From: Methanobacteriota archaeon
GTDB lineage: Archaea; Halobacteriota; Bog-38; Methanoflorentales; Methanoflorentaceae
Direction of reading: 5' to 3'
NCBI GenBank assembly: GCA_963720465.1
Contig: OY970393.1
Span: 864,001 to 928,000, forward strand
DNA: 64,000 bases
This document shows positions 18,456 through 20,128 of this stretch, in pieces. Under the pieces are notes generated by a model, which was given only the letters and a program-made list of their open reading frames with translations, searched no databases and was not told the origin of the DNA. The position numbers were made by a program, and so were the translations under genes. How positions within the stretch are numbered: the first letter of the stretch is position 1; each line of letters opens with the position of its first letter.

Positions 18456-19019
18456 TCACACTTGATCAAGCATTTGATCGGACATGCCTTCCATCTCGTC
18501 TTGCGAAGGCCCTTTCTCAAACGTAGCGGCTTGAATCACGTCGTCTATTCGAAGGATCATGTTCGCGGCTTCAGTGGCCGACAAGATGGCTTGCTTCTTC
18601 GTTCTGAGAGGTTCGATCACGTCAGGCCACATATCTGTCGCTTTTCCCGTCGAAATCTGGAGCCCCATCGTTTTATTTCCCGATTCGTGAGCGGTCCTCA
18701 AACCAACAAGCGAGTCCATCGGGTCCAAACCCGAGTTTTCGGCAAGCGTTTTTGGAATAATTTCGATCGCGTCGGCAAAGGCGATGACTGCCAGTTGTTC
18801 CCTCCCGCTGAGCGTTGACGCGTAGTCGCGGAGTTGCATCGCGATCTCAACCTCCGGAGCGCTGCCTCCCGCGACGACTTTTCCATCTTCGATTGATGCT
18901 TGAGCGACTCGAACCGCGTCGTACACAGCTCGGTGAGTTTCTTCGACTTGATGATCGGCTCCCCCGTGAATGACGATACTGACGACGCGAGGGTTTTTAC
19001 AGTCTTTGATTGTTATCAT
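18456..19019 (-). CDS. ths: Thermosome subunit, C-terminal part
   Basis: CKNPRVVSI, VAGGSAPE, IPKTLAENSGLD, EPLRTK, ILRIDD; GGAGGT 6 nt upstream of ATG. Confidence 0.9.
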   Translation of the reverse strand: MITIKDCKNPRVVSIVIHGGADHQVEETHRAVYDAVRVAQASIEDGKVVAGGSAPEVEIAMQLRDYASTLSGREQLAVIAFADAIEIIPKTLAENSGLDPMDSLVGLRTAHESGNKTMGLQISTGKATDMWPDVIEPLRTKKQAILSATEAANMILRIDDVIQAATFEKGPSQDEMEGMSDQMLDQV

Positions 19020-19033
19020 TCCTAGACCTCCGT

Positions 19034-20128
19034 CTAATCAATGCCGCAGGTGTCACAGCCAGATTCTATGTCAGTTGTTTCTTCGATTTCGCCCGCGTTG
19101 CCCAAGTCTGATGCGCTGAGATCATTCAGGCTGGACACCACTCGGGCGCCGGTCACCTTAGAAATCGTCTCAATGTCCTCGCGTTTCACGTTCTCCACTG
19201 CCATCACGTTATTACGCGAAAAGTGCCATTGGAGTAGATCGTCGATACCCTTCTGGCAAAAGACGACGTTAGCACCGCTTGCCAAGATCTTGTCAGCCTT
19301 CTCGATCAGCGCTTCATGATCGCGTTCCATGAAAAGTTTCATTTGCGTTGGATCTTTTATTTTGATTTTGGCATCGGTCTTTGTTTTGGTAAGCTCGAGT
19401 GGTTGGTCATACACAAGGATGCGCGCATCGCATACTTTTCGCGGCATTCCCTCGGCAGCGCGTTCCTTGTCGACAACAACGCCTTCTACGAGTTCTGAAT
19501 CGGAAACAGAACCGGAAAGTTTCTTTTCAATTCTGATGTCATCCTCGTCGACCTTGTACGTGTTGTTGACTTTTTGCGCGACCATTTTCACCGCTTCAAC
19601 AACGAGCTGCGGAAGTATCTCAGTGCCCACGTCAGTGCCTTTGCCCGTGAGCGCCGTCTTTGCAATCTTCTTCAGCAGATCGTCATCGCGAATCGAAACG
19701 TTGCGCGACAGCAGTTCGGCGATCTCAATCGCTTTTTCTGCGGCGAGGCCGTAGCCTTTCTCTATAACCGTGGGGTGGATGTCTTGATCGAGCAATTCTT
19801 CTGCGTTTTTCAGCAATTCCCCAGCCAAGATAACCGCCGTTGTTGTCCCGTCGCCCACTTCATCATCCTGCGTTTTAGCGACTTCAACCATCATCTTAGC
19901 TGCTGGATGCTCAATATCCATCTCCTTCAATATCGTCGCGCCGTCGTTCGTTATAACCACGTCGCCCATCGAATCAACGAGCATCTTGTCCATGCCTTTC
20001 GGTCCGAGCGTAGTTCGCACTGATTCAGCTACGGCCCTGCTCGCGGTAAAATTCATTGACTGGGCTTCCCTGCCCTTCGTCCTTTGTGTTCCTTCGCGTA
20101 GAATGAGAATAGGTTGACCACCAATCAC
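19034..20128 (-). CDS. ths: Thermosome subunit, N-terminal part ending in a CxxC tail
   Basis: GTG start after [38 protein letters not shown]; ends [11 protein letters not shown]. Confidence 0.92.

Follow-up and report, generated by a model that had tools for sequence, protein, structure and literature searches.

Chaperonin subunits work through large hinge motions, by which ATP-driven signals arising in the equatorial domain reach the apical lid; and in the thermosomes of solved structure (1Q3R, 3KFB and 1A6D) each subunit is a single chain. Naturally split genes are known elsewhere in archaea, among them those for RNA polymerase A'/A'' and B'/B'' and the split genes of Nanoarchaeum. Here we describe a thermosome gene divided into two open reading frames (ORFs), an N-half and a C-half, at positions 18456–20128 of a 64,000-nucleotide stretch of DNA (the window; contig OY970393.1, positions 864,001–928,000) from a methanogen-related archaeon of the family Methanoflorentaceae. 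The locus is likely to be a functional third group II chaperonin paralogue that is inherited as two adjacent genes and works as a two-chain subunit. No chaperonin was found among the described split archaeal genes in the full-text literature; and the statement of the first-pass annotation, made from the sequence letters, that no split thermosome had been described agrees with our own search of that literature, the coverage of which stops short of subscription journals and supplements.

The two products resemble the single-chain thermosomes in that together they match the whole profile of the same Pfam family, align without gaps on both sides of the break, and keep the GDGTT loop, the lid and the catalytic aspartate. 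They differ in being encoded by two genes, the hairpin turn having given way to the end of one chain, with its C-x-T-C tail of 11 residues, and to the start of another at the ancestral methionine; in having serine in place of the third glycine of the GGG motif; and in possessing residues of their own at C233, H271 and H302. As with the RNA polymerase halves and the split genes of Nanoarchaeum, two genes stand for what is elsewhere a single chain, with non-covalent assembly of the products as proposed here; unlike in those cases, the break falls inside a domain, beside a moving hinge, and is accompanied by a conserved cysteine tail.

An engineered parallel is the GroEL circular permutant CP376, which has its chain ends in Hinge 2, where the apical domain meets the intermediate one (PMC3196576). 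CP376 retains double rings, ATP hydrolysis and part of its ability to aid refolding; its apical domains are uncoordinated and encapsulation is incomplete (PMC3196576). CP376 shows that such a break is tolerated in a chaperonin; although CP376 is a group I protein, man-made and still one chain (its native ends being joined), whereas the thermosome break is natural and has long been under selection.

Architecture of the divided gene

The locus lies on the minus strand of a genome assembled as a single 2.31 Mb contig, which also carries two intact thermosome paralogues (A and B). The ORF listing gives two frames, 19034–20350 and 18456–19019, that are out of register with one another. The N-half, read from the GTG at 20128 where the conserved thermosome N-terminus begins, occupies 19034–20128 (minus strand) and encodes 364 amino acids followed by a TAG stop. 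It matches positions 1–318 of the 490-position Pfam profile PF00118 (Cpn60_TCP1; expect value (E) 1.2e-110, 371 bits, against a cut-off of 34.3 bits) and comprises the N-terminal equatorial and intermediate segments and nearly the whole apical domain including the lid. The C-half at 18456–19019 (minus strand) encodes 187 amino acids plus a stop and matches positions 324–489 of the same profile (E 2.8e-54, 185 bits); it supplies the final beta-strand of the apical domain, the C-terminal segment of the intermediate domain, which bears the catalytic aspartate (D34), and that of the equatorial domain. Together the halves miss only about five profile positions and neither contains an internal stop, which bears out the first-pass description of two ORFs of 364 and 187 amino acids, in different frames, with their conserved motifs kept.

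The end of the N-half consists of the codons for I354–D364 (19037–19069, minus strand), which include the pair C358-x-x-C361 and have no counterpart in other thermosomes. The stop is followed by a 14-nucleotide (nt) spacer at 19020–19033 (minus strand; ACGGAGGTCTAGGA) containing GGAGGT at 19026–19031, 6 nt ahead of the C-half start codon (19017–19019). The C-half opens ATG-ITIKDCKNP, and its frame extended upstream reads LDGGLG-M. The same hexamer is found at 20136–20141 (minus strand), 7 nt before the GTG of the N-half (20126–20128), as the first-pass annotation had noted in calling both copies Shine–Dalgarno (SD) sequences; the 3' end of the 16S rRNA of this genome (...GGATCACCTCCT) is complementary to GGAGGT. 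Further upstream of the N-half is a TATA-like box (TTTATATA; 20164–20171, minus strand), a putative promoter judging from its position about 39 nt ahead of the start codon.

Paralogue A of the same genome reads ERKVGGDEMIFVEKCEN at the position of the junction, matching the canonical thermosome string given in the first-pass annotation. Removal in silico of 38 nt (19032–19069) from the divided gene gives a hairpin equal in length to that of intact paralogue A, ERKVGGDEMIFVEKC. A clean 38-nt insertion, as first proposed, describes this genome and its closest relatives; in most of the genus the spacer is 15 nt and the two halves are in frame, and there the description does not hold. Paralogue A has GGT GGC at the place of the spacer GGAGGT, and it is plausible from this comparison that former Gly-Gly codons were turned into the SD of the C-half. 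The inserted segment could not be assigned to a repeat or mobile element, the 38 nt being single-copy in the genome with up to three mismatches allowed. The 50 nt of tail, stop and spacer resembled neither flank significantly (shuffle fractions 0.94 and 0.97), the best match in the rest of the genome was not significant either (blastn-short E 1.1), and no trace of a duplication or of an element was found in the genome at the insert.

Conservation of the break across the class

Orthologues were sought in 41 genomes, 24 of the class and 17 of other families of the phylum. The clade under study is a class with one family and two genera, since searches at the level of order and of class return the same 24 genomes. 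The split junction, with the C-half opening at the same Met, was present in 21 of these 24: in 20 loci compared throughout and in a further genome (G016) confirmed separately, in which the tail reads DVESGCDTCAI and the C-half open frame has 188 amino acids. All 21 assembled junctions thus have two ORFs in place of the single polypeptide of about 540 residues that marks a group II chaperonin subunit. An N-half orthologue with the tail occurs in this genome, in 13 others of its genus and in all six of the sister genus (open frames of 369–527 amino acids), with identities across the class down to 80%. The three class genomes in which the junction region is absent are 59–64% complete, and one of them has an N-terminal fragment at 97% identity. 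An intact orthologue of the split gene was found in none of the 24 class genomes, and a break at the same site in none of the 17 genomes of other families.

The N and C genes are adjacent in 20/20 loci; the downstream flank (a rubredoxin-like ORF and uppS) is shared by all 14 loci of one genus and by none of the six of the other. The pair of genes is a conserved unit. Signals for expression are retained with it: the TATA-like box is identical and the GGAGGT ahead of the N-half is kept in all 20 loci, where the N-half start codon is GTG in 17 and TTG in three.

A protein cluster search of a 5.8-billion-protein collection gave the same picture. Clusters of the N-half had 80–98% identity and lengths of 340–364 amino acids, apart from one fragment of 286 and one call of 475 with an upstream start, and the next matches below them were full-length thermosomes at no more than 62% identity; those of the C-half were of 187–197 amino acids and 76–96% identity, with the next matches at no more than 63%. 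A search of genome contigs for related loci returned only distant thermosomes (50–63% identity). Many proteins of 181–197 amino acids outside the clade start at the same methionine, and the same split in other lineages was considered for these and rejected: the look-alike that was tested (P0035) is full-length in metagenome contigs, at about 540–570 amino acids, and 41 of its 80 loci listed are a single ORF with both GDGTT and RIDD, most of the remainder fitting neither of the simple motif patterns. The short outside hits were therefore treated as gene-calling fragments that start at a conserved internal methionine.

The split clade is supported at 100% in a maximum-likelihood tree, where its stem is long (0.448), and is nested neither in paralogue A or B nor among 20 outside thermosomes. 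The split copy is an old and divergent third thermosome paralogue.

Paralogue A of one single-contig genome of the sister genus (G022:C1:2271804-2272854) is also in two frames, with a break at about residue 290–294 and open frames of 311 and 272 amino acids. This site differs from that of the conserved split; an error of sequencing, or else a lesion of recent date, is the probable cause.

Selection and transcription

The ratio of nonsynonymous to synonymous substitution rates (dN/dS) was estimated by the Nei–Gojobori method in ten genomes, from within-genus pairs with dS above 0.1. The N-half gave 0.065 (19 pairs) and the C-half 0.025 (20 pairs), as against 0.030 for intact paralogue A and 0.036 for intact paralogue B (20 pairs each); comparisons across the two genera are saturated at synonymous sites. 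Purifying selection on each half is comparable to that on the intact paralogues.

Sixteen studies of peat, wetland and freshwater sediment have runs that contain the stretch 18300–20300. The junction was checked in one independent DNA run and in three metatranscriptome runs of different studies, in assembled contigs rather than raw reads. RNA contigs from all three studies run collinearly over the junction with no gaps (X15, 18431–20130; X17, 18431–20135; X18, 18919–19422), supporting co-transcription of the two halves. In two of the studies the RNA contigs end at 20130 and 20135 with Illumina adapter directly after, and these ends and the TATA-like box give a weak hint of an mRNA leader of about 2–13 nt with GGAGGT at the very 5' end.

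The independent DNA run has the same arrangement; in one of its contigs an additional base follows 19024, which is the very indel in the spacer by which this genome differs from the majority of its genus. That the structure is an artefact of assembly or sequencing, for which one could point to this genome being a single contig and to a probable 1-nt repeat-length error at the 3' end of paralogue A, is a negligible prospect given the same structure in 20 other genomes, one independent DNA run and three RNA runs; and the check for assembly error that the first-pass annotation had called for is answered by DNA and RNA runs that both carry the insert.

Structure models of the two chains

Residues 2–351 of the N-half correspond without gaps to residues 4–353 of the Thermococcus KS-1 alpha thermosome (1Q3R), and residues 1–170 of the C-half align to 360–531. 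Against the structure 3KFB of Mm-cpn from Methanococcus maripaludis, N-half residues 9–351 correspond to 7–346 and C-half residues 1–180 to 353–534. The break replaces a six-residue turn (354–359 in 1Q3R, 347–352 in Mm-cpn), because both alignments flank it. We take the apical domain of the Thermoplasma thermosome to span about residues 215–365, which puts the hairpin last in that domain and about ten residues before the intermediate domain. The natural break presumably lies about one beta-strand upstream of the hinge position equivalent to that of CP376, with the register taken from alignment of the catalytic aspartate.

Modelled alone, the N-half had a mean predicted local distance difference test score (pLDDT) of 61.9 and a predicted template modelling score (pTM) of 0.36, and only its apical part was confident (pLDDT 81–89, residues 270–350). 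A chain made by reading through the in-frame junction of a relative, with X at the stop, reached a mean pLDDT of 79.3 and a pTM of 0.75. In this read-through model the strands 343–351 and 371–377 (C-half 1–7) flank a low-confidence loop at 354–368 and a helix lies at 260–284 in the lid region; superposed on 1A6D_A, it has a target-normalised template modelling score (TM-score) of 0.95 and a root mean square deviation of 2.2 Å, and identity over the fold alignments to single-chain thermosomes is 49–52%. The tail has a pLDDT below 50 in both single-chain models.

The two halves were also modelled as a complex, which scored 0.84 against 0.01 for the best control; a mark that 58 of 80 solved complexes and two of 110 mismatched pairs reach, and that speaks for compatibility of the chains, not for binding, since the same contacts lie within single chains of solved thermosomes. 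Runs of the complex model agreed in at least 93% of contacts, with a partner pLDDT of at least 82 and about 500 contacts, including those of N-half residues 344–351 with C-half residues 1–44. The tail (354–364) falls outside the confidently placed interface residues and is neutral either way. Taken together, the structure models support two predicted chains that rebuild one three-domain subunit.

Improbable alternatives: free use of the halves, rejoining and decay

We considered whether both ORFs may be expressed and selected although no subunit is rebuilt, the N-half serving as a free apical holdase or just one half being functional. Isolated chaperonin apical domains can show chaperone-like activity, as cited within PMC3196576, and the apical part of the N-half does model well by itself. 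The N-half nevertheless retains about 210 equatorial and intermediate residues that are poorly modelled without the C-half and account for the bulk of the predicted contacts, about 500 in all; the C-half, with the lowest dN/dS of all, is the most constrained and has kept its catalytic aspartate; and adjacency and spacing of the genes are maintained in every one of the 20 loci. Separate use of the halves is thus very unlikely.

Rejoining of the chain at the level of RNA or of translation, by a bulge-helix-bulge intron, by frameshifting or by stop readthrough (including pyrrolysine at TAG), bears on the same junctions, the anatomy of which was compared over the 20 loci. Loss of the 38 nt gives, as noted above, a hairpin of canonical length in this genome; in 13 loci the C-half ATG shares its frame with the stop of the N-half, so that readthrough there would yield one chain; and mcrA is present in the genome (its McrA has Methanocella sp. 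as nearest named relative, at 75%), some methanogens being known to decode TAG. The junctions of the remaining loci are, however, shifted by 2 in six and by 1 in one, and the two genera end the N-half differently, one with TAG, the other with TAA. Three frame relations and two stop codons do not obey any one recoding rule, and a conserved frameshift or readthrough is excluded because the frames vary and the stops differ. The best genome match to PylS scored 24.8 bits against a cut-off of 178, so TAG is an ordinary stop here.

Nor does the segment look like an intron. The tail has the consensus D-I-E-[S/A]-[G/S]-C-x-T-C-G-I-D in the 20 loci, and C-x-T-C is kept in 20 of the 21 junctions, in line with the first-pass claim that the insert encodes a CxxC tail. 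Among 19 sequences the variable sites in the 11 tail codons number two, one and 11 at codon positions 1, 2 and 3, and since variation sits almost wholly at third positions the tail is translated and constrained as a peptide; such codon-periodic, synonymous variation is unexpected for an intron. A bulge-helix-bulge motif has two 3-nt bulges set apart by a 4-base-pair helix at the exon–intron borders, and a check by hand of the four splice registers that the GAC...GAC repeat allows showed the central helix in none of them. The fold of 19000–19110 is no better than that of shuffled sequences (z -0.47), and Rfam gave no match in 18000–21000 at E up to 1. RNA contigs of the three studies retain the insert and no spliced form or joint across the junction was reported in them, though rare forms may escape contigs.

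Between stop and ATG lie 14 nt in four loci, 15 in 12, 16 in one, 17 in two and 21 in one, and every spacer has a purine-rich GGAGG- or GGGGA-type stretch ahead of the ATG; this conserved SD and start codon before the C-half likewise argue against a rejoined chain, which we hold to be highly improbable. A split intein or other protein trans-splicing was rejected as well, there being only 11 extra residues after the N-half, none before the conserved C-half, and no Pfam intein family.

A decaying pseudogene beside two intact paralogues is less probable still. Two such paralogues do exist, and the split copy combines a long branch with a Gly-to-Ser change in its nucleotide-pocket motif. Yet the same single lesion is found in 21/21 assembled junctions, from lineages that differ by up to 20% at the protein level and are saturated at synonymous sites; 20 of the 21 junctions show no lesion other than the shared break; dN/dS lies between 0.025 and 0.065; promoter, SD and start codon are kept in 20/20 loci; and the locus is found in RNA contigs of three studies. 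The first-pass annotation had named intact close relatives and relaxed selection as grounds for calling a pseudogene, and we found no intact relative and constraint on both halves.

Proposed working of the two-chain subunit and its weaknesses

The reading that we prefer is that of a two-chain subunit broken near the end of the apical domain, which had been put forward in the first-pass annotation and is now supported by class-wide conservation, selection, co-transcription and the fold and complex models. The N-chain would be translated from a GTG start with a short leader and end in the 11-residue Cys-x-x-Cys tail; ribosomes would then restart 14 nt downstream at the GGAGGT-led ATG, which corresponds to the ancestral internal methionine of the thermosome hairpin. 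The two chains would co-fold non-covalently into one ordinary three-domain subunit, in which the equatorial domain and the intermediate one are each made of segments from both chains and the C-chain adds the last apical beta-strand. Because the domains interleave both chains in this manner, the only opening in the backbone would be at a single hairpin turn, which precedes the apical/intermediate hinge by one strand. The subunit presumably enters rings with, or beside, the two intact paralogues. The split may loosen coupling of its lid, and the conserved tail may offset or exploit such loosening. Separate translation, 1:1 assembly and incorporation into rings are what we infer from the evidence above, as are whatever effects the open hairpin or the cysteine tail may have.

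Several points weigh against a working two-chain subunit. Its two chains are predicted from genes, RNA contigs and models, and RNA contigs that span both genes prove neither a single transcript nor translation of either ORF. The confidences of the two single-chain models are not strictly comparable, their alignments being of unequal depth (26 rows, and 40 for the read-through chain), and the complex and read-through models very probably pass through their likeness to solved thermosomes. For the N-half, dN/dS is roughly double the values for the intact paralogues. One locus (L025; G018:C1:947498-951574), to which the 21-nt spacer belongs, has a 1-nt insertion after the first tail cysteine that turns ...GCGTCGID into ...GCGNMRN and moves the stop, and is the sole junction of 21 to lack the second tail cysteine; this may be a sequencing error, a possibility given the single-contig genome, or this locus may be able to do without the tail. 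Finally, the split subunit may be catalytically altered, as the Gly-to-Ser change in the GGG motif and the long stem branch would suggest.

If the two-chain reading is right, as we think likely, the locus shows that the covalent link at the hinge is dispensable in vivo. The chain has been open beside the hinge throughout the history of the class and under strong selection, a natural counterpart to GroEL CP376; and it offers a system for asking what part the link plays in coordination of the lid, how interdigitated chains co-fold, and whether a CxxC tail can act as tether or sensor. Data from peat and freshwater sediment show the lineage to be common and expressed, and annotation pipelines will label genes of this kind as partial or as pseudogenes.

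Clade-specific residues and the cysteine tail

The GDGTT loop is invariant and the N-half aligns to 1Q3R without gaps through the lid residues 240–290. The catalytic aspartate, D34 of the C-half and equivalent to D386 of Mm-cpn, is also invariant. At C-half position 53, the third glycine of the GGG nucleotide-pocket motif, all nine sequences of the split clade have serine and all 15 others glycine. The clade-specific cysteines and histidines are C233, H271 and H302 and, in the tail, C358 and C361; the position of C233 is occupied by K, R, E or T in all 16 other aligned thermosomes. Two further candidates for clade-specific ligands were discarded: Cys7 of the C-half (in CKNP), which is invariant in 24/24 aligned C-terminal sequences, and His18 of the C-half, which paralogue A also has.

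Short CxxC(G) motifs that need two further ligands to hold a metal are familiar from the Rad50 zinc hook and from CxxCG zinc knuckles; these serve as analogies for the tail motif only, and homology is not claimed. A metal or redox staple can be envisaged, in which C358 and C361 would act with C233 and/or C7 of the C-chain, or in which tails of neighbouring subunits would share one metal. On this model a metal (Zn or Fe) or a thiol link would close the open hairpin in place of the lost peptide bond. A cluster of cysteines round the break is geometrically conceivable because A235 contacts the C-chain in the model and C233 is two residues away on the same strand; we nonetheless regard the staple as unlikely. 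Were it to exist, the apical-hinge link and lid closure of the split subunit would depend on metal or redox state, and an anaerobic peat methanogen would have a chaperonin with a built-in stress switch.

The ORF convergent with the C-half (18171–18308, plus strand) encodes 45 amino acids with two CxxC pairs and matches the rubrerythrin rubredoxin-like domain PF21349 (E 1.6e-9); it lies beside the C-half in 14/14 loci of the genus and in 0/6 of the sister genus.

Neighbouring genes and paralogue A

On the other side of the locus, about 780 nt (20129–20912) separate the start of the thermosome gene from a divergent enolase gene. This interval has no Rfam match and contains only short ORFs without an assignment, for example at 20250–20558 (minus strand).

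Paralogue A (L001; G000:C1:431669-436141) has a GGM-repeat tail that is one base short at its 3' end in this genome, and its last residues are frameshifted and extended (…GGMAACPQCEAAHPF…) by comparison with the GGMGGMPPM end in relatives. The missing base may be a repeat-length assembly error; the same appearance of paralogue A in two other genomes (G001 and G009) is due to NN in the records.

Kae1 and Bud32 are fused in some archaea; in the window, at 13612–15164 (plus strand), Kae1/TsaD (PF00814) has an ORF of its own and so has a small RIO/Bud32-like kinase, with a 19-nt overlap between the two.

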